Of a stretch of DNA of 64,000 bases, positions 1-34,240 are shown in pieces (the stretch's first letter is position 1; each line of letters opens with the position of its first letter). The position numbers and the translations under genes are program-made. Origin of the DNA: a virus; IMG/VR virus record IMGVR_UViG_3300048599_000816, positions 96,545 to 160,544 of that record, one strand, 5' to 3'. Below the pieces are notes generated by a model. That model was not told the DNA's origin. It saw only the letters and a list, made by a program, of their open reading frames with translations, and did no database searches.

Positions 1-426
1 TTTCATGAGTTTTTTTGCTGTTTTTTCTAGAGAAGTAGAATTATCTATTTCTATAAATTTGCCTTCAAAATCCTTGAACTTATTTTTACATTCATCAATT
101 ATTTGTTTATAGACTTTCATATGTGATTTGAACGTCTCTAAATCATTGACGTGTTTTTCGTTTCTTGCTAATGCACGTTCAACTAAAACCTCAGGTTTTG
201 CTTTTACATAAACAAAACAAGCTCCAAGTTTTAAAAACTTATCAATAAGTTTTAAATTGTTCTCCTTTCGAACTTTGTCTGTACGACCATAAATTGTGTC
301 ATAAACAATGTTGCAAATAGGCGATCGAGGAATCATATAAGGTTCATAGTTGTAGAGTTTTGCAAGTTCATGCATCAAAGAATTTTTACCTGAGCAATCT
401 GTTCCCAAAAAACAAATTATTTTCAT
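1..426 (-). CDS. P-loop nucleotide kinase (thymidylate/dNMP-kinase-like), truncated by the window edge
   Basis: Minus-strand frame from ATG at 426..424 reads MKIICFLGTDCSGKNSLMHELAKLYNYEPYMIPRSP... (Walker A GxDxSGK) and stays open to position 1. Not in the ORF track because no stop lies in the window. Its ATG overlaps the stop of the upstream gene (ATGA). Confidence 0.5.
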   Translation of the reverse strand, partial: MKIICFLGTDCSGKNSLMHELAKLYNYEPYMIPRSPICNIVYDTIYGRTDKVRKENNLKLIDKFLKLGACFVYVKAKPEVLVERALARNEKHVNDLETFKSHMKVYKQIIDECKNKFKDFEGKFIEIDNSTSLEKTAKKLMK

Positions 427-1454
427 AACCAGTATGGCTCCATTTCTATATTTTCAATTACGCTATTGATAGTTTTTTCTATACCAATATCAAGAGGTAT
501 ATAATTGTCGAACTTGTTAAAACTTAAACCTGCATCTTCTATTTTTGAATCATCAATGTTATGATAATGTAAATAGTCTTTTTCTCTATCAAAAATTATC
601 CATTCATTGACTTGTTTGTTAAAATCAGTTTGGTTACAAATCCCCTTTTGTGCAAAATAATGACTTATAATAGCAAACATCTGATACCAATTTTTTGCTA
701 TTTTATAAGACTCACCAATGTTATAAACAGGACACCAATCTTTTAAATAATTACAATTACCTTCGACAAAACTCAAAATACATGTTGCAATGTTCTCTAC
801 TCTAGTATACGACTTAGGTATAGTTGGATCAAGCAAGATTGTTAATTTGTGATCAGTGTGTTGTGTAAAATTTTTGTACATTACATAGATAAGCTTTGTT
901 AAAGCACTATGAAGATCATCTGGATAGTTTCCAAAACCAAAAACAGGTCTAACAACAATGCGATCTGTTTTACAAACATTTTTTACTAAAAGTTCACCTG
1001 CATATTTAGTTATACCATAAAGCGTTTGAGGATTTATTGGTGTACCTTCTGACATTGGTTTGTTCATGTCATAACATGATGGATCAAGAATTGCTGTTGT
1101 AGAAAGATAAACTAAAGGTATGTCATATTTATTACAATATTGTACTATATTATGCGTACCTTCAACATTAGTTCTAATTGCAGCATTAGGATCAGAAGAA
1201 CAGAAATCAGTACCAACAAATGCACCAGAGTGAATAACAGCACCAAGAGTATTCCAAGGTATTGTTTCTAAAGCTTTTGGATCAAGAAAATCTAACTCTG
1301 GTTTCCTTACTTTAAAACTTTGATGTTTTTTGTGTTTAGTTAAAGAATTTTCTATTAATTGAGAATTGACTACTTCCAAACCATACAAATGAGCATTATG
1401 TTGCATTTGCATTGGAATAGTACCTGATTCACCTGTTATCAAAATCTTCTTCAT
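423..1454 (-). CDS. NAD-dependent sugar epimerase/dehydratase (extended SDR family)
   Basis: N-terminal Rossmann motif ITGESGTIP and catalytic YGITKYAGE (YxxxK). Confidence 0.65.
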   Translation of the reverse strand: MKKILITGESGTIPMQMQHNAHLYGLEVVNSQLIENSLTKHKKHQSFKVRKPELDFLDPKALETIPWNTLGAVIHSGAFVGTDFCSSDPNAAIRTNVEGTHNIVQYCNKYDIPLVYLSTTAILDPSCYDMNKPMSEGTPINPQTLYGITKYAGELLVKNVCKTDRIVVRPVFGFGNYPDDLHSALTKLIYVMYKNFTQHTDHKLTILLDPTIPKSYTRVENIATCILSFVEGNCNYLKDWCPVYNIGESYKIAKNWYQMFAIISHYFAQKGICNQTDFNKQVNEWIIFDREKDYLHYHNIDDSKIEDAGLSFNKFDNYIPLDIGIEKTINSVIENIEMEPYWL

Positions 1455-1642
1455 AAAGTTCCTTTTACTATAAATTTCATTTTTGTTGTTTTAACTTCAA
1501 TTTTATTTTCCAAAATCCAATCACTATCACATTGCCACCAACCATTCGAATTACAAACAAGCCAACCTTCAACTAATTGTTTGCAAACTTCTCCTATTGA
1601 TCCATCAGGTAGTTTGCAATGCGTCTTAAAAACTTCAATCAT
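1451..1642 (-). CDS. hypothetical small Cys/Trp-rich protein
   Basis: ORF track; translationally coupled to both neighbours. Confidence 0.3.
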   Translation of the reverse strand: MIEVFKTHCKLPDGSIGEVCKQLVEGWLVCNSNGWWQCDSDWILENKIEVKTTKMKFIVKGTL

Positions 1643-3345
1643 TTTAAAATTTCCAAAATCATTTCTTTGTATTTATCTTTTGTAGCTCTTTGGTAACTAA
1701 ACACATAACTTGGATGCCAAATATTCTGTAAAGGTATTTTTATATTATTATCTCTAAAAAGGATAGTTAAAAATTCAAAAACTTGTTTTCCCATGCTTAC
1801 GACAAGTTCGGGTTTCAAAACATCGATCTCATCAACTATATTCACAAAACAAGCTTGTGCCCAATGCAATTTTATTTCGTTAGTTTGTGATGAGCAATTA
1901 TGCATAACAAGATTATCTGCTATATAACTTTCATCTTCTTCAACACTTAAATTGTATCTAAACCCTCTGCTTTTTTCCATTCTTTCAATACTTAAAATTT
2001 TCGTAGGTTTGAAAACATATTGATGTGTATGATTCTTTAATATTCTTATAATTTCTTTTACGCATCTATCAGCATCTTTTAAAATCTCTTTTTCATCAAA
2101 AATCAAAACAGTATATCCTTTAGATTCTAAGTATTTTGTCCTTTTTGAAGAAAGTTCTACTTTTTTTGTTTTATGCCAGTACCAACCATTACATTCAATA
2201 ATTATTGGTTTTTCATCAAGAACAATATCAGGAAAATATCTACCAATTCTTAAATTGTCTTTAAACTTTATATTTTCTTTTTCTAATCCTTTTTTTATTA
2301 AAACTTCTATTTTTGTGTTTTTTATGGGAATAAATTTTTGTCCAGCAGAATATTTATGCGTACTATAGTACTTAGCAAGCGCTTCTGTCCCTAATGAAGG
2401 AAAGTCTACTCCTCTTTCTTTCATAATTTTTATATTTCTTTTACCTTGTAGTTTTTGTCTTCTCTTTACTTTTTTTGTTTCAGATTCTGAAAGTTTATAT
2501 AACCAGTGATTACCATTTTTATGAATATCACCTGAATGCCATTTTTTTTGTTTTACAAGATCTCTTACTTTATCATTCGCTTTTTTAGTCAATCTAAATC
2601 TTAATGTAGGATCTTTTTTTAAAAGCTTAGGTATTCTATATTTATTTGAACATTTTCTTGAACAATAAACATGTTTTTTTACATCATATTTATTTTTTAT
2701 TATTACTTTATTACAATATGCGCATTTAGAAGCAAGCGATATCAACTCGTCATCTGTAGTTAAATCACTTGCTTTTTTCCAACCAGTTGTTGTCAAAAAG
2801 GGATGTTCGTCTGTCACAATGATTTTATTTTTACTAGTTTTTTCAAATTCATTATTAATAAAAGTAATTTTTATTCTTGTGACACTGTTATCCATTTTTT
2901 CTTTAAAAACTTTTGTAATTTTTCTAAATCTTCCAAGATGTGTCAAAACTCTATCACCAACTTTTAAAAATTTAATTTGGATCCAGCCTTTAGAAGTATA
3001 AATTTTTGTTTTAGGACTTGTAAGACAATGTATGAGATTATCGCAAAATATCTCTTCAAACATTCCTGTTTCTTTTAAAAGCTCATTGAATTTTCTTCCA
3101 GACCCTGGACTACCTTCAACTCCACCAAATGCATATTCATGTCCAGGAAATCTGTTATAAGAAGGATTCATCCCTATAAACAAAAAACGGCATTTTTTTG
3201 TGCCGCCTTTCCAACCATAAAGTTTTCCATAACCTTTTGCAATATCTTTTTTGTTATAATCTAGATCACATAATTCACACCTTGTACAAGCTTGAATATC
3301 TTTGTTGATCTTATCTAATTGTGCTTCTAATTTTTGACAAATCAT
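1639..3345 (-). CDS. Fe-S uracil-DNA-glycosylase-superfamily protein interrupted by an intein
   Basis: Extein: Cys cluster CTRCELC..C, motif FIGMNPSY, C-terminal WHPSYVF (HPS motif). N-extein 106 aa plus C-extein 85 aa gives 191 aa, a normal UDG size. The remaining 377 aa start with Cys after NLIH and end with VMHN followed by CSS. Confidence 0.65.
   Translation of the reverse strand: MICQKLEAQLDKINKDIQACTRCELCDLDYNKKDIAKGYGKLYGWKGGTKKCRFLFIGMNPSYNRFPGHEYAFGGVEGSPGSGRKFNELLKETGMFEEIFCDNLIHCLTSPKTKIYTSKGWIQIKFLKVGDRVLTHLGRFRKITKVFKEKMDNSVTRIKITFINNEFEKTSKNKIIVTDEHPFLTTTGWKKASDLTTDDELISLASKCAYCNKVIIKNKYDVKKHVYCSRKCSNKYRIPKLLKKDPTLRFRLTKKANDKVRDLVKQKKWHSGDIHKNGNHWLYKLSESETKKVKRRQKLQGKRNIKIMKERGVDFPSLGTEALAKYYSTHKYSAGQKFIPIKNTKIEVLIKKGLEKENIKFKDNLRIGRYFPDIVLDEKPIIIECNGWYWHKTKKVELSSKRTKYLESKGYTVLIFDEKEILKDADRCVKEIIRILKNHTHQYVFKPTKILSIERMEKSRGFRYNLSVEEDESYIADNLVMHNCSSQTNEIKLHWAQACFVNIVDEIDVLKPELVVSMGKQVFEFLTILFRDNNIKIPLQNIWHPSYVFSYQRATKDKYKEMILEILK
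1897..3027 (-). mobile_element. intein (Hint domain plus DUF559/Vsr-like PD-(D/E)xK homing endonuclease domain) inside the UDG gene
   Basis: The insert begins CLTSPKT and ends VMHN|C. Its internal segment PIIIECNGWYWHK...YLESKGYTVLIF matches the hhExDGxxH...GW.VLRF motif of the three free-standing endonucleases in the tRNA array. Confidence 0.6.
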
Positions 3346-4273
3346 GACTTAAAAGTTCCATTGGATTGTTTATTCTTATTAAGTGTTTGTTTTTATAAAA
3401 TTGATCTTGATTGTATGTTTTCTCTAACAAAAAAACAATAAGACCTTGATGATTGAAATTTTTTGTGTTTTCAAGATTGTCTTCTACAATAAATTTAATT
3501 TTGAATCTTAATTTATAGACGTCCTCTTTTCTTTGAAAATCAGACCAATAAATAGCTTCAAAAGGGATGTTGTTTTGATGTAACCAATACAGAGTGTCTG
3601 TGTAAATTACTTTGTATTTCGATACAGGTCTATTTGTGAAAAGGATAATTGTTTCGCCATTATCCTTAAGTTGATTCATTAATTTAAGTGTATCTTTATT
3701 TACAGGTTGAAATCGTTTTTCTCCTGACAATCTATACTCTGTTTTTAGATCTTGATATCCTTTTAAATCAAGTTGGTCTTTCATCTGTTCAGTAGAATTA
3801 AAGTTTGTCCCTTTGTTTTTATTAACCCAATCAATGAAACAATCTGGAAAATTGTTAATCACACCATCAATGTCAAAGACAACAACTTCTTTACTTGACA
3901 AAATCTGAAATTTTTTATTTTGTTCATATTTTTGTTTTACAACTTCAGTTTTGTCATTGTAACCTTTTATGACATCTTCAAATGAAATACCAAGAAGTTG
4001 ACCAAGGCCCATAAAATATTTAAAGACGTCTACATATTCTTCGACAAGATTACTTGTTACTATTGCATCAGTTTCACGTTCATCATTTTGATAGTGCATT
4101 TTCCAGTGAGGCAAACAATTAATAAGGTCAGACAACTCTTGATTCACGTGAAAACAAAATTCTTTTGCCCAACGAATTTTATCTTCTATAGACAAATTTT
4201 TTAGATCAAGATTATGATCTTTAAAAAAGCGCTCATTAAATTCAAATTGATTATCCCAAATTTGTTTATTCAT
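3311..4273 (-). CDS. MazG-like all-alpha NTP-pyrophosphatase domain fused to a HAD-superfamily phosphatase (5'-nucleotidase-like)
   Basis: C-terminal half has VVVFDIDGVINNF (HAD DxDxV motif) and FTNRP. N-terminal half is helical with MazG-like acidic motifs. The fusion is inferred. Confidence 0.45.
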   Translation of the reverse strand: MNKQIWDNQFEFNERFFKDHNLDLKNLSIEDKIRWAKEFCFHVNQELSDLINCLPHWKMHYQNDERETDAIVTSNLVEEYVDVFKYFMGLGQLLGISFEDVIKGYNDKTEVVKQKYEQNKKFQILSSKEVVVFDIDGVINNFPDCFIDWVNKNKGTNFNSTEQMKDQLDLKGYQDLKTEYRLSGEKRFQPVNKDTLKLMNQLKDNGETIILFTNRPVSKYKVIYTDTLYWLHQNNIPFEAIYWSDFQRKEDVYKLRFKIKFIVEDNLENTKNFNHQGLIVFLLEKTYNQDQFYKNKHLIRINNPMELLSHDLSKIRSTIR

Positions 4274-4527
4274 AAGAATATTTTCCTTTTTTCAACTCTA
4301 TCATAATCATTGCAAGTAAAAAAATGAGAATTGAAATTTTCAATAAGATTTAAATGACACTCGCAACTTATAAAAATATAACCAAAAAAAATATTTTCTT
4401 TAAATTTTGAAGCAATGGTTAAACCAAACATCATTAAAAAAGGATTCAAGAAAACTTTCAAAATACTTCTATGATTTACTACTTCATTTTTATAATAAAG
4501 AATACCTAAAGGTTTAAATTTTTTCAT
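4270..4527 (-). CDS. hypothetical protein
   Basis: ORF track; operon-packed. Confidence 0.25.
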   Translation of the reverse strand: MKKFKPLGILYYKNEVVNHRSILKVFLNPFLMMFGLTIASKFKENIFFGYIFISCECHLNLIENFNSHFFTCNDYDRVEKRKIFL

Positions 4528-5180
4528 ACTATAAATCTCATCTTCACATTAACTTTTTCAGTTTCAACAAGTGGTGGTGCAGGATCTTGAACCCAAGACG
4601 TTTCAAAAAAATTTGGCTTCTGCGAAGGTATTGACATTAACCGTTCAGCTCTTCGAATCTCTTCAAGCGATATTTGTTGACGTCTTTGTGCTTCTTCATT
4701 TCTTTCAGCTCTTCTCAACCCATCAAAAGTTAGTTGTTCATATCTGGTTAAACGTTGACGTTCATTGCTTGTACGCTCAAGTTGTCTTCGTCTATAATCA
4801 TAAGACACTGAAAAAAATCCAACTACAAAAACAACTCTTGCAGGATTAAAATGTTCGACAATTTGCTCAGCGTTTCGTACTTCATCAGCGTAAATGTGAT
4901 ATAAATTTGATGGATTAAGTGTTCGCGATAATTCACTTTGCGCAACTTGTAAAGGTATATATGGATTCACAACAAAAACTTCTGCAATATCTCTATATTG
5001 ATCTAAAGCATGTCTTGTGTGAACTAGAACTATATTATTTCTTTGGTTGTTTCTTTGAATTAATTGTCTAATACAATTAGTCTTTCCAATTGCTCTTAAC
5101 ATCCCACAATCAATATTACGTGGACACCCACGTTCTATTTGACTGACCATAAACATTAATTCTTCAACAGACATCTGCAA
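4524..5180 (-). CDS. hypothetical protein with R/E-rich C-terminal low-complexity region
   Basis: ORF track; no motif recognised. Confidence 0.3.
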   Translation of the reverse strand: MQMSVEELMFMVSQIERGCPRNIDCGMLRAIGKTNCIRQLIQRNNQRNNIVLVHTRHALDQYRDIAEVFVVNPYIPLQVAQSELSRTLNPSNLYHIYADEVRNAEQIVEHFNPARVVFVVGFFSVSYDYRRRQLERTSNERQRLTRYEQLTFDGLRRAERNEEAQRRQQISLEEIRRAERLMSIPSQKPNFFETSWVQDPAPPLVETEKVNVKMRFIV

Positions 5181-6102
5181 TAGCTTCCTCTATTACTGTT
5201 TCTGTTTTCCAACGACGTTGCCATGCACCATAACGTCCAATAAATTTAACTTGTGGCTTATCTAAAATTTCGAAATCTTTATCTAAAGAGATTATTTGAT
5301 TTCCTTTGACATATCTAATTTGTTCTTCTTTGGGAACAATATAATATTTCTCCAAAATTTGTTTCATATACTCTTTTACTTTAGAGCCAAAAACATCACA
5401 AACAATCCCCTGTTTACATTTTGTCAGTCTGTGAAACACAGTATCTTGCCGGGCATCATATACATAATCAAAATCTTTTAAATCAAAAGTAACTTCACTT
5501 GGTAACAAGCAATAAGCCATATCAAAAGACTGTAATTTGACGTCCAAGCCAGCAACACGAGCGAAAATGCTTAGTGGTATTGTAGATACTAGTTTGCTGT
5601 ACTTGAACGTCATATTAGTGTCTGTTTCGACAATTTGGTTTTCTAAATCTATAGAAAAAGCTCTTCCCATATAGATTCTATCACCAATTTTTTCAAAAAG
5701 CTTATTGATTAAGTCTTTAAAGTCAACATCACAAACTTGAAATTCTTTTACGTTTGTATTTAAAACTGTAGGATCAAATCCTTCAAGGTTTTCTTGACCT
5801 CTTGACTTCATGAAATATTTTTGTCTAAATTCAGGTCCTGGATTTTCTACCCATCCTGAATCATCTAAATAACCTATTCTAATAGTAGAAAACTTTATTG
5901 GAACGTCTAATTCTTCTAAAAACTTTCTTACAGGCCCTGGTTTATCATGTAAATACCTTGGTCCAAGATCAAAATATGACATCATTTGGCCACCTACTTG
6001 ATCAGTCAAGATAAAATGATCTTTATGATAGTATGCCCAAATAAGACCTGCTATTCCTGCGCCCAGAATAATTTTCATATTAATTTCCTTTTGTTTTCCC
6101 AA
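5164..6102 (-). CDS. FAD/NAD(P)-binding oxidoreductase (UGM/amine-oxidase-like fold)
   Basis: N-terminal KIILGAGIAGL (GxGxxG); the segment LGPRYLHDK resembles the YGPHIFHT motif of UDP-galactopyranose mutase. Confidence 0.45.
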   Translation of the reverse strand: MGKQKEINMKIILGAGIAGLIWAYYHKDHFILTDQVGGQMMSYFDLGPRYLHDKPGPVRKFLEELDVPIKFSTIRIGYLDDSGWVENPGPEFRQKYFMKSRGQENLEGFDPTVLNTNVKEFQVCDVDFKDLINKLFEKIGDRIYMGRAFSIDLENQIVETDTNMTFKYSKLVSTIPLSIFARVAGLDVKLQSFDMAYCLLPSEVTFDLKDFDYVYDARQDTVFHRLTKCKQGIVCDVFGSKVKEYMKQILEKYYIVPKEEQIRYVKGNQIISLDKDFEILDKPQVKFIGRYGAWQRRWKTETVIEEAIADVC

Positions 6103-6815
6103 TATTTTTTTCTAGCAATCGACATTTTGTTTTTTGTTGAATCTGATTTCTTTTGTCCAGTAAGTTTTAAACTCATTTTCGCTTTGCAACTTTCTGACAA
6201 GTGTTTTCCTCTTATATTAGGATTTGACTTTCTTGAATCACTTATTTTTTTCTTTGATAGATCTGAATGGTTACCCCAAGAAACACCAGAACGTTTAATA
6301 CTTATTTTACGTTTTGTCTCTTCTGTATGTTTTTTACCAAAAAATGGATTATCTTCTCCTTTTACTTTATTTTTTAAAAAATCTTTATACTTTTGACTTC
6401 TTTTCTTGCCTTTATTTGCTTGACTTACTTTTTGCTTTGTACTAGCTGAATGTTTTTTCCCGAAAAAACCATTTTTTTCACCAGTAATACTTTGTGAAAT
6501 TTTCTTTTTAATTTCTTCATTAAATTCAAAAGAGTCACCACCATCAGTTAGATTATAACCAGATGATACTTTGTTTGAACAATAAAAAGCTATCCAAAAT
6601 TTTTCTTGCGTGTTTAATTGTACTCTTGTTTGACAAACTTCTAACACTTCCCATTTAAAATTTATTTTGCCATACTTTTTTATTGCTCTTTGAAAATAAG
6701 CACTATTATAGTCTGGCGAAGACTCATGGGTTTTTCTTCTTTGCTCTAATGTTTTTATAGTTTGACCAATATAAACTTTATTATTGATTATATTGGTTGC
6801 TTTATAAACGATCAT
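6075..6815 (-). CDS. GIY-YIG homing endonuclease
   Basis: N-terminal MIVYKATNIINNKVYIGQT...RRKTHE (GIY...YIG...R...H/E). Basic DNA-binding repeats follow (GKKHS / GKKHT NUMOD-like). Confidence 0.75.
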   Translation of the reverse strand: MIVYKATNIINNKVYIGQTIKTLEQRRKTHESSPDYNSAYFQRAIKKYGKINFKWEVLEVCQTRVQLNTQEKFWIAFYCSNKVSSGYNLTDGGDSFEFNEEIKKKISQSITGEKNGFFGKKHSASTKQKVSQANKGKKRSQKYKDFLKNKVKGEDNPFFGKKHTEETKRKISIKRSGVSWGNHSDLSKKKISDSRKSNPNIRGKHLSESCKAKMSLKLTGQKKSDSTKNKMSIARKKYWENKRKLI

Positions 6816-7793
6816 TTATTCGCTTTCAAAATAAGATCTGTCACTCTGTTCGAGTTTGTCATAATCATTTTCTGTGAAATCAATCCAGTCAGTTGGTAAC
6901 TTGATTTTCATATCAAGTTGCTGTTCAAGTTTGTCTTTGTCAGTACATGATTGATTGAATTCAGCATACTCATTTGATGTTCCTGGATTTCGATTACATG
7001 GGGCAAATAGACATCCAAACATATTTGACATATTGTAAGCATTGTTGTATGTGCATTTTTTCCCAAAATCACAACCAGGACGACAATAATTTGCCAAGAA
7101 AGGAAATACTTTTTCAAGTTCTTTGTGTACAAGCCACGCAAAAGCAACAGTTGCATCAGCTTCACAAAATTGCATTCTCCTTGCAAGTAAACTCTGAAGA
7201 GCAGCAAAATTAGCTGAGAAACTAAAAGCATGTGTATTTGAAATAGGGAATATTGAACGAGCACTTTGCCATGAACCTTTGCCTTTATGAATAACTAAAT
7301 CATAAACATCTTTACAGTGAAGTGCAGCACTTTTGAATGCTTCAAACAATTCAGGATCTTCAGCAATTTCATCATGAACAAAAAAACCTGCATCATTATG
7401 GTTATTGTCTCTTGTTCCCTGACTTGAGAAAACAATCCCAAGTCTTGCTCGAGCTATCTGATCAAAAGACCAACGAGGAAGACGTTCGACTGCAAATGTA
7501 AAACAAGGTGCTTCATAAGCTAAAGGCAATGCTTGTCGTTTCAAAACAGCTAAAACAACCATGAATCTTCCTTGGGGTGTTGTATCATTCCATTTGTCGA
7601 TTTTCTTTCCCCAGCAAGATGTTGCCATAGTGTACATAGATTTGTAAGGATTTCGCGAACAATCGATAAGCTTTACGCTGTCTTTCATACCAGTTACACC
7701 AATATGAAAATCAGTTTTTTTCTGAGGTTCTTGGTCAGGGAGAGTTCCCATAACTCTTCGAATTGCATTTACATGTTCATTTAAGTTTTCCAT
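6816..7793 (-). CDS. divergent ThyX-like (flavin-dependent thymidylate synthase family) protein
   Basis: CFTFAVERLPRWSFDQIARARLGIVFSSQGTRD aligns to the ThyX core FTF.IEG.SR..S.QLVRHR..S.SQQSQRY. However, RHR is replaced by RAR and SQRY by GTRD. Confidence 0.4.
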   Translation of the reverse strand: MENLNEHVNAIRRVMGTLPDQEPQKKTDFHIGVTGMKDSVKLIDCSRNPYKSMYTMATSCWGKKIDKWNDTTPQGRFMVVLAVLKRQALPLAYEAPCFTFAVERLPRWSFDQIARARLGIVFSSQGTRDNNHNDAGFFVHDEIAEDPELFEAFKSAALHCKDVYDLVIHKGKGSWQSARSIFPISNTHAFSFSANFAALQSLLARRMQFCEADATVAFAWLVHKELEKVFPFLANYCRPGCDFGKKCTYNNAYNMSNMFGCLFAPCNRNPGTSNEYAEFNQSCTDKDKLEQQLDMKIKLPTDWIDFTENDYDKLEQSDRSYFESE

Positions 7794-7801
7794 TTTTTCT
7801 C

Positions 7802-8167
7802 CTAAGATTTAAAGTTTTTGTACATTGTCGTATTTGTAAGGAAACTTGATTTCCAGTTCCATTCATCAAGAAAATAATGTTCAAAATCAGCTTCTGATAT
7901 TTCTATCTCTTCTCTTGTCTCAAATTCAATCATTTTGATTGCTTTTTCGTACTCTTTGACATAAGAGAAAGGTTTGGGAAGATTTGTAATATCAACTTTA
8001 GTATTAATTGCATTAGGAAGGTCAAGTTTTTCAAGAATCTTTTTTAACTCGACTTTAGCTTTTTCAATCCAACCAATGACAGCTTCGTCATAATCTTTTT
8101 GGTGTTGAGCAAGATTTTTTTTGAGAACATCAAGAACAGTTTCTTTTTTTACTTTAATATGTTCCAT
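7802..8167 (-). CDS. hypothetical protein
   Basis: ORF track, trimmed to the internal Met (MEHIKVKK) so it abuts rather than overlaps the next ORF. Confidence 0.3.
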   Translation of the reverse strand: MEHIKVKKETVLDVLKKNLAQHQKDYDEAVIGWIEKAKVELKKILEKLDLPNAINTKVDITNLPKPFSYVKEYEKAIKMIEFETREEIEISEADFEHYFLDEWNWKSSFLTNTTMYKNFKS

Positions 8168-8168
8168 T

Positions 8169-8405
8169 TTATTCCTTCTTTTCTGCAGGTGGTTCGTCAC
8201 AAACTTCAGCATCAACATCAGCTAAAAGTTTGACAAAAGTATTCTTTCCAATAAAAACTTTCGAGCCTTTTTTAATTTTGATTTTAGATGTATTATCAGT
8301 TTCTTTTTCTGTGATCAAATCGTCAAAAAAACTTTCAACACCTTTGCCAACATTCGTAAGACAATCTGTCAAGTTTTCAAATGCTTTTTCAAAATCTGTT
8401 TTCAT
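8169..8405 (-). CDS. hypothetical acidic protein
   Basis: ORF track. Confidence 0.3.
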   Translation of the reverse strand: MKTDFEKAFENLTDCLTNVGKGVESFFDDLITEKETDNTSKIKIKKGSKVFIGKNTFVKLLADVDAEVCDEPPAEKKE

Positions 8406-8430
8406 ATTACTCCTTTGTTAGCTTGTAATC

Positions 8431-8793
8431 TTGAAATTATATATTCCAAAAACAAGAAAAAATAATAAAAAACTTAAGATGTCATGTTTTTCTCACTTAA
8501 AGGAGCGTAAAATGAATGCTGAAAAGATTCACGAATTAAGTGGTCTAATAGCAAGACTTGAAAGATTTCAATGTTCTGTTTATAACAAAGATAGCAATCC
8601 TACAATGTATGTTGAATCAGAAAAAATTCAAAAATCAGAGTTTGAAAATGTAGAACAATTTGCTGAAGACTTAAGAGTAGCTATTGAAACTGTTGTAAAT
8701 AAACACGTCAATTTATTGAAGAAGGAAATTGAAAAAGAAGTATTGGGTATTGTAGAAAAACAAAAAACAAATAGAAAAACAAAAAAGACTTAG
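8431..8793 (+). CDS. hypothetical protein (lysine-rich C-terminus)
   Basis: Plus-strand ORF followed directly by the hairpin terminator. Confidence 0.35.
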   Translation: MKLYIPKTRKNNKKLKMSCFSHLKERKMNAEKIHELSGLIARLERFQCSVYNKDSNPTMYVESEKIQKSEFENVEQFAEDLRVAIETVVNKHVNLLKKEIEKEVLGIVEKQKTNRKTKKT

Positions 8794-8812
8794 TTTTCAC
8801 TAAGTCTTTTTT
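8786..8812. terminator. bidirectional rho-independent terminator
   Basis: agacttag-ttttca-ctaagtct stem-loop flanked by A-run and T-run, between convergent genes. Confidence 0.6.
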
Positions 8813-8834
8813 AAAATGATACCTTAAGGATACC

Positions 8835-9620
8835 TTAAGAAAAAAATGAGTTTGTTGTGCCACCAATTGTGGTCTGACTTGTCCGGATAACTGATTTACT
8901 AACTAAATCAACAGTCCTACGTATTTCACTTTCTGTTGCAGCTGCAGTTAGAACGTTTGGAAATCCAACCTTTTTAGCGACAGCTTTCAGAATTGTATCA
9001 GCACTTGGATCGTTAGGATCTGTATAACCGACGTACACAGGATAGAACATTTCTTTTTTAAGAAGCGACTCTGTTGTAATTTTAACTTCGCTTGAAGATG
9101 ATTTCTGTGAATCATTATCATCACCATCAGAAAAAACTACCACAATAGTTTTTGTTCTTACACCATTTTGATTCAGGTCTGTTGCATAAGCTTTCGCACC
9201 TGTGATAGATTCCATAAGAGCATCATATACTGCAGTAGAACCGCCTGTCGCTCTGTAATCATTACCAATTGGAGCAATTTCATCAGATTTTTTAAACCCA
9301 TGCAAAATTTTCGTCCTTGTCGAAAAAACAACTGTACTTACGAGAATTGAGCCACCTTGCTTTGAGTTTTTGAAAGACTGAATCATTTTGTCATACGAAT
9401 CACGTACAACTTGTTCATGTTTCTTCATTGAAATCGAAGCATCAAGTAAAATTTTAACGACTGTTACGTCATCTGTTTCAATATCATCCAATGAAGTACC
9501 AAGGCAACCAGCAAGATTTGAACCATCTAAACTGTTGACCATAAGTGCACCTACTGTAGGATCTACAGTAGGCAAACTAAATAGATTTTTTACGTCATCA
9601 ATATCAGCCATGTTAATCAA
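8835..9620 (-). CDS. von Willebrand factor A (vWA) domain protein, TerY-like
   Basis: MIDAS-like LLDASISM (DxSxS) and TKTIVVVFSDGDDND. Confidence 0.55.
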   Translation of the reverse strand: MINMADIDDVKNLFSLPTVDPTVGALMVNSLDGSNLAGCLGTSLDDIETDDVTVVKILLDASISMKKHEQVVRDSYDKMIQSFKNSKQGGSILVSTVVFSTRTKILHGFKKSDEIAPIGNDYRATGGSTAVYDALMESITGAKAYATDLNQNGVRTKTIVVVFSDGDDNDSQKSSSSEVKITTESLLKKEMFYPVYVGYTDPNDPSADTILKAVAKKVGFPNVLTAAATESEIRRTVDLVSKSVIRTSQTTIGGTTNSFFS

Positions 9621-9634
9621 TTCCTTTCTAATTT

Positions 9635-10579
9635 TTATTTAAAAACATCAGTGCTGTTGACAATATTAAGACCTGCTTTTTCGAATTTTGCAAATTCAGC
9701 ATTTGCAATTGCTTCAAAATCGATTGTTGGGTGCTTTACTGAACTCATGCAATCTTTCAGAATCCATATTTTCTTGAGTACTTCAGGTTGATCTTTAAAA
9801 AACAAATACAATTGAAGGAGAGACTCAAGAACACAATGTGATTTTGCTTGTCCTGCAACGAGCAAACGATCATAACGACCCATAAGGTTAAGAAATGCTG
9901 TATTGATACCACCTCTTGGATTTTTAGGTACCAAAACTTCAGGACGGAAAATACCGAACATTTCAGTTTCAGGAACGTCACCTTTAAGTTGAAAACTGAT
10001 TTGTGACCGTCGAACAGCTGCATGGTAATAACAAATTTCATAGAGAGAAGGTACCAATGCATGTCCAGGTGTACCAAGCATAGTATGTTCTGGCCAAATC
10101 ATCAATGGCTTATTTGCTTGTTTTTCAAGAGTTTTCACGTAATCTAAAGACCAAATCGGATCAATAACTGGCTTAAATTTACCCGCTTCAATATCAGCAC
10201 TCGTAATAACAGTATAGGGTGCCGGATTTTTTCCATTTTCATCAACCCACCAATATCCATAGAAGATTTGAAATACCATGTGAGTATCGAGCGTAGGATA
10301 AATTGTTGTAATTTTGCTCATGTTATTGATGATAAGATCAATAATTCTAAACATATCAATTTCAGAATTATCAACATAAAGTTGACCAATAGGTGGGGGC
10401 AAACAGAAATCAATCTGACAGTCAATTAGAAGCAAGGCAACCCTTTGGCCAGGTTTATCCATTGCCGATGGCATTATAGGGTTACGAGCGGCCTCAGCTT
10501 TCACAGCTTGGATGTTTGGGACAAATAGTTGTCCGATTTTTTTCTCATCGAAAAAACTTGGTCTTGGTGCCATACACAA
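9635..10579 (-). CDS. isochorismatase-family hydrolase, possibly a nicotinamidase (PncA-like)
   Basis: ALLLIDCQIDFC (catalytic Asp motif D.Q.DF) and LLVAGQAKSHCV (catalytic Cys motif). Confidence 0.5.
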   Translation of the reverse strand: MCMAPRPSFFDEKKIGQLFVPNIQAVKAEAARNPIMPSAMDKPGQRVALLLIDCQIDFCLPPPIGQLYVDNSEIDMFRIIDLIINNMSKITTIYPTLDTHMVFQIFYGYWWVDENGKNPAPYTVITSADIEAGKFKPVIDPIWSLDYVKTLEKQANKPLMIWPEHTMLGTPGHALVPSLYEICYYHAAVRRSQISFQLKGDVPETEMFGIFRPEVLVPKNPRGGINTAFLNLMGRYDRLLVAGQAKSHCVLESLLQLYLFFKDQPEVLKKIWILKDCMSSVKHPTIDFEAIANAEFAKFEKAGLNIVNSTDVFK

Positions 10580-10591
10580 CTCCTTCTAAAG

Positions 10592-12463
10592 TTATTTTTT
10601 TATAAGTCTTAAAAAACTGACCTTGTGTTCTGATACAACTAAAATACCATCTTTATATAAATACGTAGTGTCACTAGAATCAACATATTTTTCAGTTTGT
10701 TTTTTCAAAGATAATTGCTTGTGTTTTTCAATCACAATACCCACATCAGTCGGGTGTATAATAGAAGAACCTGCTAATGTTTTCCCAGTGATGTTTCTCA
10801 TAGTTTCTGAATTTATAGATGTTGTTGTCATTGTATCAATAACTTTTCCAGTATCATCAATTAAGAAATAATGTGAATAAGTTCTTCCATCAGGATGTAA
10901 AGATTTTACAAGAAACAAAACTGTAGAAATTGATATTTCAGCATCAACTTCAATTATTTTTCCTTCAATTTTGGGAAGAGAAAATTCATATCTGCCTTTT
11001 GGAGAAAAAACAAAATAATGATATTGATTAAAGACTCTAAAAAAACAAAAACCCAGTCCTGTCCTTCCAACTTTAAACCAAGTTTGATTTTGTAAAGTTT
11101 GCGTAATTACTGTATCAGCAATGTTTTTTCCAAAAATTTCAGAAGATAAAAGTGTTTGTTCTGCGAGTCTATAAAGTTTTGTTGAACTACAACTAAAGAT
11201 TAAATAACCATCATATTTCAAAGTAGTTGTCTTTAGAACAGGCTGCAAACTAAGTGTTACTTCAAATATTTGAAGTTCATCATTGACACCTAATACAAGA
11301 TAATTTTTAAAAAAATCATATTGTACATCTTTTGTATGACCTGACCATAACTTAAAATCTTTTTTATCTTTATCTGAAATTATATGCAAGTTAGTTTGCA
11401 TCCCATTAAATTCGATAACTATTATTCTATTATCGTCAAGAACTTTTGAAAAAAGAATAGTTCCTTCAGTTTGAAAAAGAATATCACAAATACAAAAATC
11501 ATCGTGAATATCTTGTGTTACGACAATTTGTTGAATATTAACTGTAGGTTGCACAATTGGTACAAAACAAACAGAGCATTTTCCTCTACCTTTATAGTAA
11601 TAGTTGTTACAAACATTACATTTTACAAAAGAATTTTTATGACTATCTAAAAGAGACATTGGCAATTCTATTCTTTGATCAAGTTTAAAAATTTTGTCAA
11701 AATAATCAAGCAATTCTATACTTAAAGTTTCAGGTTTAATTGCTATTCTCGGATAAACTACACTTGAATCAAATACAGAAATTTTATTTTTTGCTCTATC
11801 TACTATTGTTTGTAAGGTATTATGAACACCACCAAAAGGATGTGTTAAAAGCAAACATTTAAAAAGCATAACAGCATAACTATACCAATCAGTCTCTTTT
11901 GAAAAGTATTGTTTTAAAGAAAGATCAACGCCATAAAGTCTTGGATCAAGAAACTGTTCTGTTCCTACTGCACAAGGATATTTTCCAAACTGAAATGAAT
12001 CAACATCAATAAAAACTGACAAGAATGAATTATTGTAAAGTACATTCATATCATTGTAATCACCAACAACAATGTTATTTGTATGCAAAACTTGCAATGT
12101 CTCTAACATATGTTTAAAGAATGTTATGATTTCATTGGGAGTTATTTGTTCTTGATTTCTATTTTTTTTGTTTGAAAGATAGACTGCTTCTTTACATTTT
12201 TTTGCAACATGCATAGAGAAACCAACAATGTTTGATTTTTCATCATACACAAGATCTAAGGGACATGCAATATTATCGGGTAATGTCAATTTCAAATCTA
12301 TGAAATCTTTAAGTTTTTTTGCTCGTTGAGGAGAGGGATTATGATAAATTTTTAAAGCGTGTTTTTTATAAAGAACGACTGTCGCTTCACCACCTGTACC
12401 AAGTGAGTCTTTATCGTCAACTTGGATTTTTTCTTTATTAAATATTAATGTCTTTGTTGTCAT
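10592..12463 (-). CDS. protein-kinase-like (Ser/Thr kinase fold) protein with Zn-ribbon and C-terminal domain
   Basis: Gly loop LGTGGEATVV, ALKI lysine, catalytic-loop-like HTNNIVVGDYNDMN (D...N), DFG-like FIDVDSFQFG. Cys-rich CNVCNNYYYKGRGKCSVC follows. Confidence 0.5.
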   Translation of the reverse strand: MTTKTLIFNKEKIQVDDKDSLGTGGEATVVLYKKHALKIYHNPSPQRAKKLKDFIDLKLTLPDNIACPLDLVYDEKSNIVGFSMHVAKKCKEAVYLSNKKNRNQEQITPNEIITFFKHMLETLQVLHTNNIVVGDYNDMNVLYNNSFLSVFIDVDSFQFGKYPCAVGTEQFLDPRLYGVDLSLKQYFSKETDWYSYAVMLFKCLLLTHPFGGVHNTLQTIVDRAKNKISVFDSSVVYPRIAIKPETLSIELLDYFDKIFKLDQRIELPMSLLDSHKNSFVKCNVCNNYYYKGRGKCSVCFVPIVQPTVNIQQIVVTQDIHDDFCICDILFQTEGTILFSKVLDDNRIIVIEFNGMQTNLHIISDKDKKDFKLWSGHTKDVQYDFFKNYLVLGVNDELQIFEVTLSLQPVLKTTTLKYDGYLIFSCSSTKLYRLAEQTLLSSEIFGKNIADTVITQTLQNQTWFKVGRTGLGFCFFRVFNQYHYFVFSPKGRYEFSLPKIEGKIIEVDAEISISTVLFLVKSLHPDGRTYSHYFLIDDTGKVIDTMTTTSINSETMRNITGKTLAGSSIIHPTDVGIVIEKHKQLSLKKQTEKYVDSSDTTYLYKDGILVVSEHKVSFLRLIKK

Positions 12464-31861: not shown

Positions 31862-32806
31862 CTAATAAATAAAATTTTCATCTTTTGTGCCTGATCTTTG
31901 CTTCCATATCAAAGCGTCATATACTGCAACAGAAACGTTTAAACTAGCTGCTCGAAATCTTATTTCATCCTCTATATTAAAATAATCAAATTTCTTGTCT
32001 TTGACACACAAATGTTGCAAAATATGTGTATCAACGATAGCTAAATCGTCAAGCCCTAGATTTCTTAGAAAATGACTAGAGGCCTTTAAGCCCATTCCTT
32101 TGATTCTACCTATTACAAATTTCCGTTTTGCTCGTGAATCACTATCTGTTTGTAAAAGCACTTCATTTAATTTGCTATAAAACAAATCATACTCATTCTT
32201 CATCTTAAGCAAATAATCAACTTTTCTATTTTTAAAACGAATTGAAGAAATCAGCTCAAGAAGTTTTTCTCTAGATATTTGTGAAGAATAAAAACCATTA
32301 TCTTTCAATTTTTGTATGACTGTAGAAACTGTACTAAATCTTGTTTGAGGTACTAAAATACAAAAGCAAAGATTATAAAAAATATCAATTTTTTCTTTTG
32401 GTTTTTTAAATCTCTCAACTATTTTTTCAGCATTTACAATTTCTTCTTCAGTAAAAAAATCTAACATTTCATAAACTTTCACATTAAGATGTTTCATAAA
32501 CCACTCTGCTACTAAATGTCGATGACAAAACTGTCCAGGCAGTTCCCAACAAAGTAGAACAGAATTTTCGCTCAACTCTTCATAAACAGTTTTAGGATCT
32601 AAAACATCAAGAACTTCTTTTTGATATTGCAGTTTATAGAACTCTTCATCACCGTCTTCTTTATACTTTTTGTAAAACCAAAGTTTTGGAGCGAGTTTTT
32701 TATATTGTCTACCTGAAAACCATTCAGGTGCTCTACCTGTAATAGATACAGCATTTGAACTTTTTCCCAATTTCGCAAAATATGATGTTTTCATGAAAAC
32801 ACTCAA
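31862..32806 (-). CDS. HhH-GPD-type DNA glycosylase/lyase-like protein with an N-terminal uncharacterised domain
   Basis: GMGLKASSHFLRNLGLDDLAIVDTHI (helix-hairpin-helix, Gly/Asp signature). Confidence 0.45.
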   Translation of the reverse strand: MSVFMKTSYFAKLGKSSNAVSITGRAPEWFSGRQYKKLAPKLWFYKKYKEDGDEEFYKLQYQKEVLDVLDPKTVYEELSENSVLLCWELPGQFCHRHLVAEWFMKHLNVKVYEMLDFFTEEEIVNAEKIVERFKKPKEKIDIFYNLCFCILVPQTRFSTVSTVIQKLKDNGFYSSQISREKLLELISSIRFKNRKVDYLLKMKNEYDLFYSKLNEVLLQTDSDSRAKRKFVIGRIKGMGLKASSHFLRNLGLDDLAIVDTHILQHLCVKDKKFDYFNIEDEIRFRAASLNVSVAVYDALIWKQRSGTKDENFIY

Positions 32807-32929: not shown

Positions 32930-34222
32930 TCAAATCAATTTCTTATAACATTTTGTTTTATAAAAATTATACATATAAGTTTTCATCCATTTATTAACTT
33001 TTTGAGTCTTTATTTTTAACAGTTTTGAAACTTCATTCACCCAACCAATTTTTGAAAAATCTATTGAACTATTTTCAACTATCTTTATTTTCTCAAGTTG
33101 TTTAAGCAATCTTAACAAAAGTCTTATTTTTGATTTTCGTTGTAATTCAAGTCTTTTAGAGTTATCTCTATTTATTCTTAAAGTTTTATTTTTAAAAATA
33201 TGATTCTCAAGAACCTTTGGAACATATCTATATTCACTTAAATTATTTAACAGAGTTAAAAACGAATTAATTCTTTCTTGATTTATTTCATTATATGCAA
33301 TTCTTACTACTTTCCACCCTTTAGATAATAAATGTCTATCTTTTTTTAAGTCATGTTCAAATCTAACATTACCATGCGAAAAATGTGCTGGTCCATCAAG
33401 TTCAACAGCAAGTTTTATATTAACAAAAGCAAAATCAATAAAATATGGAAATTCAGCATATTCACTTACAATATCATACTTCTCATTCAAATTAAATTTT
33501 AAAACGATTTTATCTATGAACCACTGTTCTAAAGAACTTGGTATTTGTTTATTTCTTTTTTCCCAAGCTGTTTTACCTGTTCGTTTTTTTAAATATTCAA
33601 ATCTTGTTTCTCTTATTTTATCTTTTGTAGCTGTAGAATGTTTAAAAACTTCTGGGTTTTGTTTATGAACTAGTTTAATCGCTTCTGATAAAGAACGATG
33701 TTTGTCTTTTAAAGCAACTGTTATGAGAGATTTATGATAACCAGCTCTAATAAGTTCATAAGTTGACATACCAGAAGAATACATTTTTATAATTTCATTA
33801 ATTTGTTGTTCAGAAAAACATTTATGTTTTTTGAAATTTCCAGAATTGAAAAATCTTTTACATTGAGTACATTGTTGTTTTTTAAAACAACTTGATATTA
33901 CTTTTTGTCGAGTACCTATAAGATAAGATTTTTTAAGACACTCACTAGCGTTATGTTTTCTCTTGATGTCTTTAATATAGAATTTTACTAATTTTTCGGA
34001 ATATCCTCTTCTGACTATCTCAGTAAATAGCATTCCAGAAATATACAAATTTCTAATTTTATTGATTTCAGTTTTTGATAGAACGCAATTTCTTTTGTGT
34101 TGTATAAATCCAGTCAAATTCTTTAAAATCCTGCCACAATTATCACATTGTAATGGATTAAAAACTGGAGCGAGAAGACTTGAACTTCTAACTCTCGGAC
34201 TCAAATTCCGATGTTCTGCCAT
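32930..34222 (-). CDS. free-standing homing-endonuclease-like protein (C2H2-type Zn fingers, HTH, DUF559/Vsr-like nuclease)
   Basis: CDNCGRILKNLTGFIQHKRNC, CTQCKRFFNSGNFKKHKC, C-terminal YFIDFAFVNIKLAVELDGPAHF...GWKVVRIAY. The ORF-track N-terminus (MAEHRNLSPRV..) is a translation of tRNA-Gln, so the true start is uncertain. Confidence 0.55.
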   Translation of the reverse strand: MAEHRNLSPRVRSSSLLAPVFNPLQCDNCGRILKNLTGFIQHKRNCVLSKTEINKIRNLYISGMLFTEIVRRGYSEKLVKFYIKDIKRKHNASECLKKSYLIGTRQKVISSCFKKQQCTQCKRFFNSGNFKKHKCFSEQQINEIIKMYSSGMSTYELIRAGYHKSLITVALKDKHRSLSEAIKLVHKQNPEVFKHSTATKDKIRETRFEYLKKRTGKTAWEKRNKQIPSSLEQWFIDKIVLKFNLNEKYDIVSEYAEFPYFIDFAFVNIKLAVELDGPAHFSHGNVRFEHDLKKDRHLLSKGWKVVRIAYNEINQERINSFLTLLNNLSEYRYVPKVLENHIFKNKTLRINRDNSKRLELQRKSKIRLLLRLLKQLEKIKIVENSSIDFSKIGWVNEVSKLLKIKTQKVNKWMKTYMYNFYKTKCYKKLI

Positions 34223-34236: not shown

Positions 34237-34240
34237 AAAT

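Follow-up and report, generated by a model that had tools for sequence, protein, structure and literature searches.

The 64,000-nucleotide stretch of viral DNA analysed here (the window) very probably carries, inside a UDG gene, a class-1 intein with an in-frame DUF559 nuclease that derives from a larger clade of such inteins, and the DUF559 genes in the tRNA array of the same window form a separate paralogous lineage. The features of the interrupted gene are the following:

1639..3345, minus strand: whole precursor gene, a UDG-like protein interrupted by the intein (568 aa, ORF confirmed)
3028..3345, minus strand: N-extein, aa 1-106 (106 aa), with cluster ligands Cys20 and Cys23 and motif A GMNPS, ending in ...DNLIH
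1897..3027, minus strand: intein, precursor aa 107-483 (377 aa, 1131 bp)
2728..3027, minus strand: N-terminal Hint part of the intein, intein aa 1-100, with Cys1 and block B T72-x-x-H75
2650..2724, minus strand: four-cysteine module C102-x2-C105...C122-x3-C126, predicted to bind zinc, its cysteines kept in relatives
2323..2649, minus strand: helical linker, intein aa 127-235, presumed to bind DNA, its helices modelled with low confidence
2023..2322, minus strand: Vsr/EDxHD/DUF559 nuclease domain, intein aa 236-335, with E241, D267, E278, N280, H285 and Ser293
1897..2022, minus strand: C-terminal Hint part of the intein, aa 336-377, RYNLSVEEDESYIADNLVMHN
1639..1896, minus strand: C-extein, 85 aa plus stop, starting with Cys+1 (Cys107 of the spliced protein) and containing Cys122 and motif B WHPSY

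The initial annotation had placed a Cys at the start of the insert and HN followed by C at its end. The residues expected of a class-1 intein are complete (C1, T72-D-E-H75, H376-N377 and C+1), with the intein opening on CLTSPKTKIYT and closing on LVMHN ahead of CSSQ, and they are nearly invariant in 150 relatives (C1 in 131, T72 in 147, H75 in 148, H376 in 144 and N377 in 146). The HMM search suggested as a check of the splicing domain matched Intein_splicing (PF14890) to the precursor above its cutoff (E 1.7e-10), the insert has the Hint fold, and its removal leaves exactly the 191 aa that had been given for the host protein. A protein identical to the 568-aa precursor is present on JGI contigs of up to 426,911 bp. 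Judged by its residues and modelled fold, the insert is a class-1 intein lying in frame in a UDG-superfamily gene of a huge phage; no further inteins were found among the large ORFs of the window. The cysteines of the four-cysteine module are retained in 144-148 of the 150 relatives, and the module persists both in P0012, which has an HNH nuclease, and in degraded members, P0010 among them; together with the linker it is modelled poorly (pLDDT 35-70). From the residues and the fold we infer that, after translation, a thioester would form at Cys1, the N-extein would be handed over to Cys+1, and cyclisation of Asn377 would leave the two halves joined as a 191-aa UDG-like protein. The freed intein would then consist of the zinc module, the helical linker and the Vsr/EDxHD (DUF559) nuclease, the last of these encoded in frame and splitting the Hint fold in two.

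The host had been described as a UDG-superfamily protein of the Fe-S type, and this description holds. PF03167 matched the spliced protein above its cutoff (E 6e-10), and 22 homologues all retain C20, C23, C107 and C122, which line up with the cysteines of the family-4 UDG TM0511, C107 falling on the Cys of NVVKC. The spliced 191-aa protein was modelled with a pLDDT of 92.7, and its top fold matches were family 4, family 5 and UdgX UDGs. It resembles TM0511 (1L9G/1VK2) in fold (Foldseek E 1.9e-10), in the matching positions of the four cysteines and in the HPS of motif B, but differs in having GMNPS where family 4 has GE(A/G)PG in motif A and is only ~20% identical to it. Scores with the NCBIfam family models were far below those needed for membership (Arch_udg, 32 bits vs 250; UDG_fam4, 27 bits vs 125), and the host is best filed as a UDG-superfamily, family-4-like protein with a predicted [4Fe-4S] cluster. 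The intein sits directly before Cys107, the invariant third cysteine of this predicted site, and because of that position the iron-sulfur site would form only after splicing, when the four cysteines can meet.

The nuclease had been assigned to the Vsr/DUF559 type as opposed to LAGLIDADG or HNH, and we agree. DUF559 (PF04480) matched the intein with an E value of 2.2e-12 (47-48 bits against a cutoff of 20.6) over the segment IIIECNGWYWH...GYTVLIF, and the domain has a Vsr-type restriction-endonuclease-like fold. Its ECNGWYWH parallels EVNGVYW(H) of I-Bth0305I, whose Asn208 is in the active site. With the residues of I-Bth0305I as reference (E170, D196, N208, H213 and D222), E241, D267, N280 and H285 of the E-D-x-H-D motif are present, as is the extra conserved Glu (E278). 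Unlike I-Bth0305I, the window intein has Ser at position 293, the equivalent of its Asp222 and of Vsr Asp97; of 150 relatives, 141 have an acidic residue (Asp or Glu) there, and locus L006 has Ala. Position 280 is Asp in 141 of 150 relatives and Asn here, as it is in I-Bth0305I. Because of the substitutions at positions 293 and 280, the nuclease of the window intein may be weakened or dead.

By sequence comparison, the window intein comes from a large clade of contiguous DUF559 inteins in uncultured phages. This in-frame clade comprises 507 cluster representatives at E ≤ 1e-30 and 347 IMG/VR loci; the match ran end to end in 121 of the best 150 clade representatives and lay within one ORF in 78 of the 80 best IMG/VR loci. 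The majority of clade inteins interrupt MuF-like proteins at HPx|CRC, and hosts beyond UDG also include a metallopeptidase-like protein and polymerases. HWQ|CRS sites are MuF-type and not UDG sites. Variants within the same clade have an HNH nuclease, a degraded nuclease or no nuclease (mini-inteins), and one member, from a Gordonia phage, carries an ORF on the antisense strand. The best BLAST matches of the window intein are UDG-site inteins, and the inteins closest to it are inserted at this very site in other UDG domains; the idea of a unique ectopic jump from MuF was dropped once these relatives were found. Monophyly of all UDG-site inteins was not supported, with bootstrap values of 0/100 when three family-4 UDG inteins from genome bins are included and 21/100 without them. 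The view that inteins with this nuclease are uncommon fits the literature and the deposited phage genomes but not metagenomes, where hundreds exist. Among deposited phage genomes, megablast of window positions 1-12000 returned no match, and tblastn of the intein returned only matches to the N-terminal Hint part, with no record covering at least 80% of it.

Comparison with an intein-less UDG allele, proposed as a way to define the homing site, yielded a candidate target. A syntenic relative (P0029/L001), 93% identical in protein and 86-91% identical in DNA in the aligned flanks of the insert, lacks exactly 1131 bp, a clean in-frame difference. The L001 junction reads ...CTCATACAT|TGT..., within an intein-less site of ...GATAATCTCATACAT|TGTTCATCGCAAACT..., and none of the 36 extein homologues found is interrupted, each being one continuous UDG sequence that lacks the insert. 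For P0001, the 99%-identical P0065 loci were used in place of its contig. No clear pseudopalindrome was found at the insertion site, only a weak 5-of-6 match 11-12 bp upstream, whereas I-Bth0305I cuts a pseudopalindrome. If homing proceeds as for I-Bth0305I and classical inteins, the nuclease would act during co-infection and cleave the allele that lacks the intein near ...GATAATCTCATACAT|TGTTCATCGCAA...; the 1131 bp would then be transferred as the break is repaired on the intein-bearing genome. The intein and the exteins of the window differ from those of L006 to the same extent (~90% identity each), which fits vertical descent since those lineages split, and there is no sign of recent intein transfer between them.

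Three free-standing genes of the tRNA array carry the same Pfam domain, and all exceed the DUF559 gathering threshold of 20.6 bits:

32930..34222, minus strand: free-standing ZnF-HTH-DUF559 gene, its 5′ end overlapping tRNA-Gln (34164-34237); DUF559 E 2.9e-9, 37 bits
47295..48242, minus strand: free-standing ZnF-HTH-DUF559 gene between tRNA-Lys(ttt) (48304-48376) and tRNA-Val (47033-47107); DUF559 E 1.5e-10, 41 bits
50255..51181, minus strand: free-standing 2xZnF-DUF559 gene between tRNA-His (51199-51276) and tRNA-Met (50219-50296); DUF559 E 3.1e-11, 44 bits

Each gene adjoins or overlaps a tRNA gene, as had been noted at the outset. In the 32930 gene the sole ATG that retains the first zinc finger lies inside tRNA-Gln, and 18 nt separate tRNA-His from the start of the 50255 gene, whose stop codon falls in the anticodon loop of tRNA-Met. 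The C2H2-like zinc fingers and HTH attributed to these genes were borne out in part: a C-x2-C-x12-H-x3-C pattern is present in all three, but Pfam zf-C2H2 and HTH_7 fell below their cutoffs, so the assignment is one of sequence pattern only. The three genes are paralogues (E 1e-19 to 5e-48), and a nuclease gene between tRNA genes recurs in different phages, with homologues in the tRNA arrays of all four other loci examined (L008-L011; three in L009). L008, the only close relative covering the region, also has the 47295 homologue. An Rfam scan around the tRNA-array genes found no group I introns, only tRNAs and a tmRNA; exact-match searches of IMG/VR with two tRNA sequences of the window, intended to recover arrays free of the endonuclease genes, gave zero matches, and when the 47295 gene was compared with the PDB, only repeat designs came up, as spurious matches. 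SegB of T4 is likewise flanked by tRNA genes in a phage tRNA array (PMC2330249; PMC13096335), but it is a GIY-YIG enzyme as opposed to ZnF-HTH-DUF559, and the homing role of the window genes is putative. With these features, the three genes look like free-standing homing endonuclease genes that have settled at the borders of tRNA genes.

The automatic JGI name of the precursor, 'very-short-patch-repair endonuclease/uracil-DNA glycosylase', would suit an insert that is a permanent nuclease domain of a fused, non-splicing repair enzyme, and a Vsr-like nuclease beside a glycosylase is functionally sensible. Such an enzyme would have two of its Fe-S ligand cysteines 377 aa apart within its most conserved motif, and it is hard to reconcile with the full set of splicing residues and Hint fold at the insert, with the same element in unrelated hosts (MuF, the metallopeptidase-like protein and polymerases) or with the precise absence of the insert in close relatives; we consider it highly improbable. 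The relation of the intein to the tRNA-array genes raises another alternative, as the initial annotation had one nuclease family deployed both as intein payload and in the tRNA array. The common family stands, with DUF559 in all four, but the kinship is old and at family level, not recent. In one search the intein nuclease matched the 47295 gene at 29.6 bits and gave nothing against the other two, as against 43-71 bits (28-42% identity) with the nucleases of other clade inteins. In a separate whole-protein comparison it did align with the 50255 gene (28% over 179 aa), and the intein-clade profile matched the 47295 (E 1.3e-21) and 50255 (E 8e-14) genes over the whole linker-plus-nuclease module. 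The intein nuclease and the three genes have a GC content of 25-26%, vs 31% for the window. The shared domain, the AT-richness and the profile matches all speak for a recent capture in this genome, by which a free-standing tRNA-array gene was fused into a mini-intein. Against it are the search scores above, the different motifs (E-x-N/D-G-x-x-W-H in inteins vs E-x-D-G-x-x-H in the free-standing genes) and the fact that the whole unit of Hint, zinc module and nuclease is common to hundreds of inteins elsewhere, and we give such a capture very little credence. The intein very probably arrived as a ready-made unit, without assembly in this genome, and the three genes form a paralogous branch of their own within this nuclease family.

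A clade-derived intein could still have lost its mobility. It is quite possible, though we lean slightly against it, that the intein still splices while its nuclease is a dead or dying relic, the element now being only vertically inherited at a late stage of the homing cycle. This would agree with the replacement of the near-invariant catalytic Asp/Glu by Ser293 (Ala in L006) and of Asp by Asn280, with the equal divergence of intein and exteins, with the many degraded and mini forms within the clade and with the loss of the motif in the family-4 UDG inteins L012-14. The near-identical relatives L006 and L002 each have a different 1-nt deletion in the nuclease-coding part, but both frameshifts are in homopolymer runs and could be assembly errors. 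Against L006, a 90%-identical lineage (dS ~0.5), the whole intein has a dN/dS of 0.07, the nuclease one of 0.13 and intein aa 101-235 (zinc module and linker) one of 0.04, which argues against a relic; the Asp is already absent in both lineages. I-Bth0305I is also active despite Asn at the equivalent of position 280, and the intein-less allele persists in an equally close relative, so homing targets remain available.

The in-frame intein described here shares with EDxHD/Vsr-like homing endonucleases (I-Bth0305I, PDB 3R3P; PMC2677866; PMC3239194) an N-terminal DNA-binding region and a C-terminal nuclease, and these too occur in phages and in company with self-splicing elements. The known members are encoded as ORFs of their own, which lie in group I introns, separate the halves of split inteins or stand free (Dassa 2009, PMC2677866; Taylor 2011, PMC3239194), whereas the nuclease of the window intein is translated in frame within one contiguous intein, and its presumed DNA-binding part is the four-cysteine module plus helices, in which no NUMOD repeat was recognised (without a NUMOD-specific test). 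Vsr-like nucleases linked to full inteins have also been reported in actinobacteriophages, and otherwise only with split inteins (bioRxiv 10.1101/2025.01.02.630785). The actinobacteriophage inteins belong to the same clade, at the MuF site, and that of Gordonia phage Nordenberg has the clade motifs VGDRVLTH.GR and NF.V.EDESYIA...HN|CRC. In those phages the Vsr-like gene is antisense and the in-frame intein region folds into nothing recognisable (same preprint), unlike the window intein, whose nuclease is read in frame and takes the form of a folded domain in the model. In the literature searched, Vsr-like nucleases were only beside split inteins or antisense within inteins, and we found no description of an in-frame Vsr/DUF559 nuclease in a contiguous intein. 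Classical LAGLIDADG/HNH inteins (PI-SceI, PI-PfuI) also have a Hint fold split by an in-frame endonuclease and an insertion before the conserved nucleophilic residue of an essential motif, and their homing cycle is visible, as in the clade of the window intein, in intact, degraded and mini forms; they differ in lacking its restriction-endonuclease-like Vsr fold and the four-cysteine module ahead of the nuclease.

Taken jointly, the evidence tips us somewhat towards regarding this as the first recognised contiguous intein with an in-frame Vsr/EDxHD (DUF559) nuclease, the fused end product predicted by the 'fractured genes' model in 2009 and again in 2025. The same reading has it belong to an extensive clade that had not been described, with 50%-identity clusters numbering at least 500, in which DUF559, HNH and antisense modules were swapped on one Hint scaffold, and which colonised a new host site, the UDG Fe-S cysteine, in at least four architectures: stand-alone UDG, canonical family 4 UDG, and UDG fused either to a family-A polymerase or to one of the Pol III alpha (DnaE) type.

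Within one clade, a single splicing scaffold is thus found with an in-frame Vsr-type nuclease, an in-frame HNH, an antisense, a degraded or no nuclease. Homing-endonuclease families are few, and evolutionary biology has yet to settle how inteins acquire their nucleases; the clade and the related free-standing genes would form a natural series on which the model of a splicing domain first, invaded later by a nuclease, could be tested. EDxHD nucleases were earlier proposed as compact cleavage modules, and several hundred intein-borne variants, each with an insertion site from which its target can be deduced, would expand this toolbox. Since the Fe-S site of the host would form only after splicing, splicing could gate UDG maturation. 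Finally, the tRNA-array genes would extend the SegB paradigm, in which tRNA clusters are inherited and amplified, to another nuclease family and to huge phages.

The intein gene is a single unbroken ORF of 568 aa on the minus strand, in a window with 18 tRNA genes, one tmRNA gene and a GC content of ~31%. The identical 568-aa protein is also encoded on JGI metagenome contigs as long as 426,911 bp, and from the size of these contigs and the tRNA and tmRNA gene content we infer that the source is a huge phage.

Genes and intein parts (intein residues numbered from its first Cys)
1639-3345 (-): precursor, N-extein, intein and C-extein
1897-3027 (-): intein, 377 aa, precursor residues 107-483
Intein aa 1-100 and 336-377: Hint parts, pLDDT about 90
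Intein aa 115-235: poor pLDDT
Intein aa 240-335: nuclease, pLDDT about 80
32930-34222 (-): free-standing DUF559 gene
47295-48242 (-): free-standing DUF559 gene
50255-51181 (-): free-standing DUF559 gene

The residues named in the initial annotation are present: the intein opens with Cys (CLTSPKTKIYT) and ends in LVMHN, followed by Cys. It also carries an internal T-D-E-H. Its excision brings FCDNLIH next to CSSQTNE, and the product has exactly the 191 aa proposed and matches Pfam UDG (E 6e-10). In the precursor, UDG, DUF559 (aa 357-436, E 2.2e-12) and Intein_splicing (E 1.7e-10) all lie above the curated Pfam cutoffs, confirming by HMM search both the nuclease family and the splicing-domain similarity.

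The intein-less allele that had been recommended for comparison is found on L001, a contig syntenic with the window. It encodes the nearest extein homologue (P0029, 93% identity, 191 aa) and matches the window with 91% identity over 3565-3025 and 86% over 1902-1033, with a sole gap of 1131 bp exactly between CTC ATA CAT and TGT/TGC TCA. All 36 of 36 homologues of the spliced extein are one contiguous UDG sequence without an insert. Three contigs with 99% nucleotide identity to the window (L003-L005) bear the intein, as does a further lineage at about 90% identity (L006 and L002), so the element is present or absent among closely related phages. The nearest synonymous differences to the insertion site are in C-extein codons 1 and 3, TGC TCA TCA in the window and TGT TCA TCG in L001 (window 3025-3045 and 1882-1896 compared with L001:526-555). 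L006, also intein-bearing, reads TGT TCG TCA there, so no consistent "immunity" change is linked to the intein.

In the spliced protein C20, C23, C107 and C122 are invariant among 22 aligned homologues, as are G58, N60, P61 and S62 of motif A (GMNPS) and H167-P168. The four cysteines line up in HMMER with those of TM0511, a family-4 UDG (C-x2-C, NVVKC and AAC), and the top fold matches of its model (pLDDT 92.7) are TM0511, a Sulfolobus family-4 enzyme, a Thermus family-5 enzyme and UdgX. Among UDGs, families 4 and 5 are those with a [4Fe-4S] cluster (PMC5295032). Since the protein fails the NCBIfam family-4 tests (32 bits against a cutoff of 250, and 27 against 125) and the family-4 motif A test, having GMNPS, we class it within the UDG superfamily as family-4-like. 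The +1 nucleophile of the intein is C107, the third invariant cysteine, so the precursor would keep the predicted cluster site split, with 377 residues between its halves.

The AlphaFold model of the intein, built from eight clade members, has a mean pLDDT of 71. Comparison scores reach 17.6 for solved inteins, 13.5 for 3hrl (a DUF559 protein), 13.1 for 3r3p (I-Bth0305I, the EDxHD prototype) and 11.9 for 1cw0 (E. coli Vsr), and 3hrl (E 1e-5) and 3r3p (E 1.4e-4) are also matched in sequence, in agreement with the DUF559/Vsr type first assigned. The stretch that links the N-terminal Hint part to the nuclease contains C102-x2-C105...C122-x3-C126, a predicted zinc module with Cys at each position in 144-148 of 150 relatives.

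I-Bth0305I residues E170, D196, N208, H213 and D222 correspond to Vsr E25, D51, H64, H69 and D97, with an extra conserved acidic residue at Vsr position F62 (Taylor, PMC3239194). The intein carries E241, D267, E278, N280 and H285, and its ECNGWYWH closely resembles EVNGVYW(H) of I-Bth0305I. The position of D222 and D97, however, is Ser293 in the window intein, where 116 of the 150 relatives have Asp and 25 Glu, and L006 has Ala. At position 280 the window intein has Asn, like 4 of the relatives, whereas 141 have Asp. Judged from these two substitutions, the activity of the nuclease is uncertain. It may be decaying, a reading that draws on L006 and L002, which are 99.7% identical and come from different sequencing runs; their intein genes (L006:5590-7301 and L002:80-1791) each have a different 1-nt deletion in a homopolymer of the nuclease-coding part. 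Each deletion cuts the gene into an N-extein plus N-intein ORF and a C-intein plus C-extein ORF, and the frameshifts may reflect decay, an intermediate on the way to a fractured or split gene, or an assembly error. Against decay, dN/dS between the window and L006 is low (nuclease 0.13, zinc module plus linker 0.04, whole intein 0.07, exteins 0.05-0.10), at a dS of about 0.5.

All three free-standing genes exceed the Pfam DUF559 cutoff, placing them in the same nuclease family as claimed, and are clear mutual paralogues (E 1e-19 to 5e-48). The zinc fingers and HTH ascribed to them are recognizable as putative C-x2-C-x12-H-x3-C fingers followed by HTH-like segments in all three, but the Pfam matches are sub-threshold. 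The four nuclease domains align only in part: queried with the intein domain, intein relatives give 43-71 bits and the 47295 gene 29.6 bits, but the 32930 and 50255 genes are unmatched. Whole-protein BLAST against the precursor aligns the 50255 gene at 28% over 179 aa and the 47295 gene at 30% over 90 aa, with no significant alignment for the 32930 gene. Against a profile of the intein clade, the 47295 gene aligns at profile positions 108-324 (E 1.3e-21) and the 50255 gene at 112-304 (E 8e-14), a span of linker plus nuclease reaching beyond the catalytic core. The GC content of the four mobile genes is 25-26%, vs. 31% for the window. An origin of intein nuclease modules from free-standing-type genes was proposed by Dassa et al. 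(PMC2677866), and an old origin from a gene of this general type would fit the module here; nuclease exchange within this genome does not fit the BLAST and profile pattern. The proposal of one family deployed in two ways holds for the shared DUF559 family, but as old kinship and not as in-genome exchange.

As originally described, each free-standing gene is beside or overlaps a tRNA gene. The 50255 gene starts 18 nt after tRNA-His and has its TAA in the tRNA-Met anticodon loop, the 32930 gene adjoins tRNA-Gln, inside which lies the sole ATG retaining its first finger, and the 47295 gene is between tRNA-Lys and tRNA-Val. Homologues on four other contigs are within tRNA arrays in 4/4 cases, and on contig L009 a single array of 15 tRNAs contains three of these genes, whose stop codons lie 2-5 nt ahead of the following tRNA. 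T4 SegB is a known parallel, although from a different nuclease family (PMC2330249). The close relative L008 has a free-standing HNH gene (L008:3202-3807) directly upstream of tRNA-Tyr and an extra tRNA-Leu(gag), both missing from the window (about 48638); this array is thus also polymorphic for the presence of a further endonuclease gene. Window 51281-52087, upstream of tRNA-His, aligns to L008:2354-3143 (about 63% over about 850 nt), and 48638-48929, upstream of tRNA-Tyr, aligns to the same stretch (88% over about 300 nt), suggesting that a segment was duplicated within the tRNA array.

Elsewhere, a phage-encoded tmRNA (59447-59852, -; Rfam 127 bits) has the ARAGORN-predicted tag peptide VNKIAVNFALAFANNVRLGMANTIVA. 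Directly downstream of the 32930 gene, 31862-32806 (-) fuses an Ogg-type 8-oxoguanine glycosylase domain to a DUF488-N3 domain and is a second DNA glycosylase in the window. GC skew is +0.185 at 20001-22000 and negative in all other 2-kb bins; this bin is within minus-strand gene 19347-22328 (993 aa, Ig-like repeats He_PIG, Big_9 and PKD). Cargo unusual for a phage (10592-12463, 16433-19330, 56771-58228) comprises a protein kinase domain protein, an AIR-synthase-like protein, a glutamine-dependent NAD synthase and a flotillin/SPFH protein.

A word-indexed search returned full-length intein homologues (27-32% identity) with DUF559 and Intein_splicing, mostly in Phage_Mu_F proteins. At the HPx|CRC MuF site the clade ranges from intact DUF559 forms of 334-390 aa through degraded ones of 197-257 aa to mini-inteins of 135-145 aa. 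The same-site intein of the MuF-like protein P0012 keeps the 4-Cys module with an HNH nuclease (PF01844) in place of DUF559, which suggests a swap of nuclease modules. A search of 1.84 billion cluster representatives with a profile of eight members gave 507 proteins at E<=1e-30; 121 of the best 150 match end to end (334-434 aa; first residue Cys in 116 and Ser in 5, HN ending in 119), and the hosts that were sampled comprise MuF-like proteins and large multi-domain proteins. IMG/VR holds 347 relatives, with the whole intein within one ORF in 78 of the best 80. Inteins of this type had been called uncommon, which is true of GenBank phages, where no record covers >=80% of the intein, but not of these metagenomes. 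Gordonia phage MuF inteins have Hint motifs in common with the window intein, and the insert bears an antisense ORF.

By BLAST, the window intein is closest to inteins that share its insertion site in other UDG domains.

DUF559 inteins at the UDG site in other proteins and contigs
P0186: stand-alone UDG-like protein, NLIK|CSTE, 36% identity to the window intein
P0212: UDG fused to family-A polymerase, intein inside the UDG domain, NVQQ|C
L054, L055, P0187: UDG fused to Pol III alpha (DnaE)-type polymerase, intein inside the UDG domain, NVVK|C

The UDG-polymerase fusions are phage proteins, and the polymerase part of P0187 has a second Intein_splicing match. L006:12932-17301 has its Pol III alpha (DnaE) gene split in two: a 467-aa PHP-domain gene is followed by a 66-aa ORF and then by a second piece of at least 1177 aa, which has an Intein_splicing match; the counterpart of this region is beyond the start of the window.

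Canonical family 4 UDGs (GEAPG...NV[IV]K|CRPP...HPAA) on contigs L012-L014, from genome bins labelled Nitrospira, Anaerolineae and Pyrinomonadaceae, carry same-clade inteins at the homologous site with a degenerate nuclease motif (E-V-R-G-P..., no W-H). The six phage UDG-site inteins form one group in a neighbour-joining tree, with a bootstrap of only 21/100, the window intein and P0186 pair at 48/100, and the genome-bin trio is apart. In published descriptions Vsr-like/EDxHD nucleases have ORFs of their own, which stand free, lie in group I introns or separate the halves of split inteins (Dassa 2009, PMC2677866; Taylor 2011, PMC3239194), and the literature reachable to us, mostly outside subscription journals, held no in-frame Vsr/DUF559 intein nuclease and no UDG intein. 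The component parts and logic of the intein are already known; what appears not to have been described before is its Vsr-type architecture in frame, how large the clade is and the UDG site, and the UDG cysteine site is a recurrent home of this intein clade.
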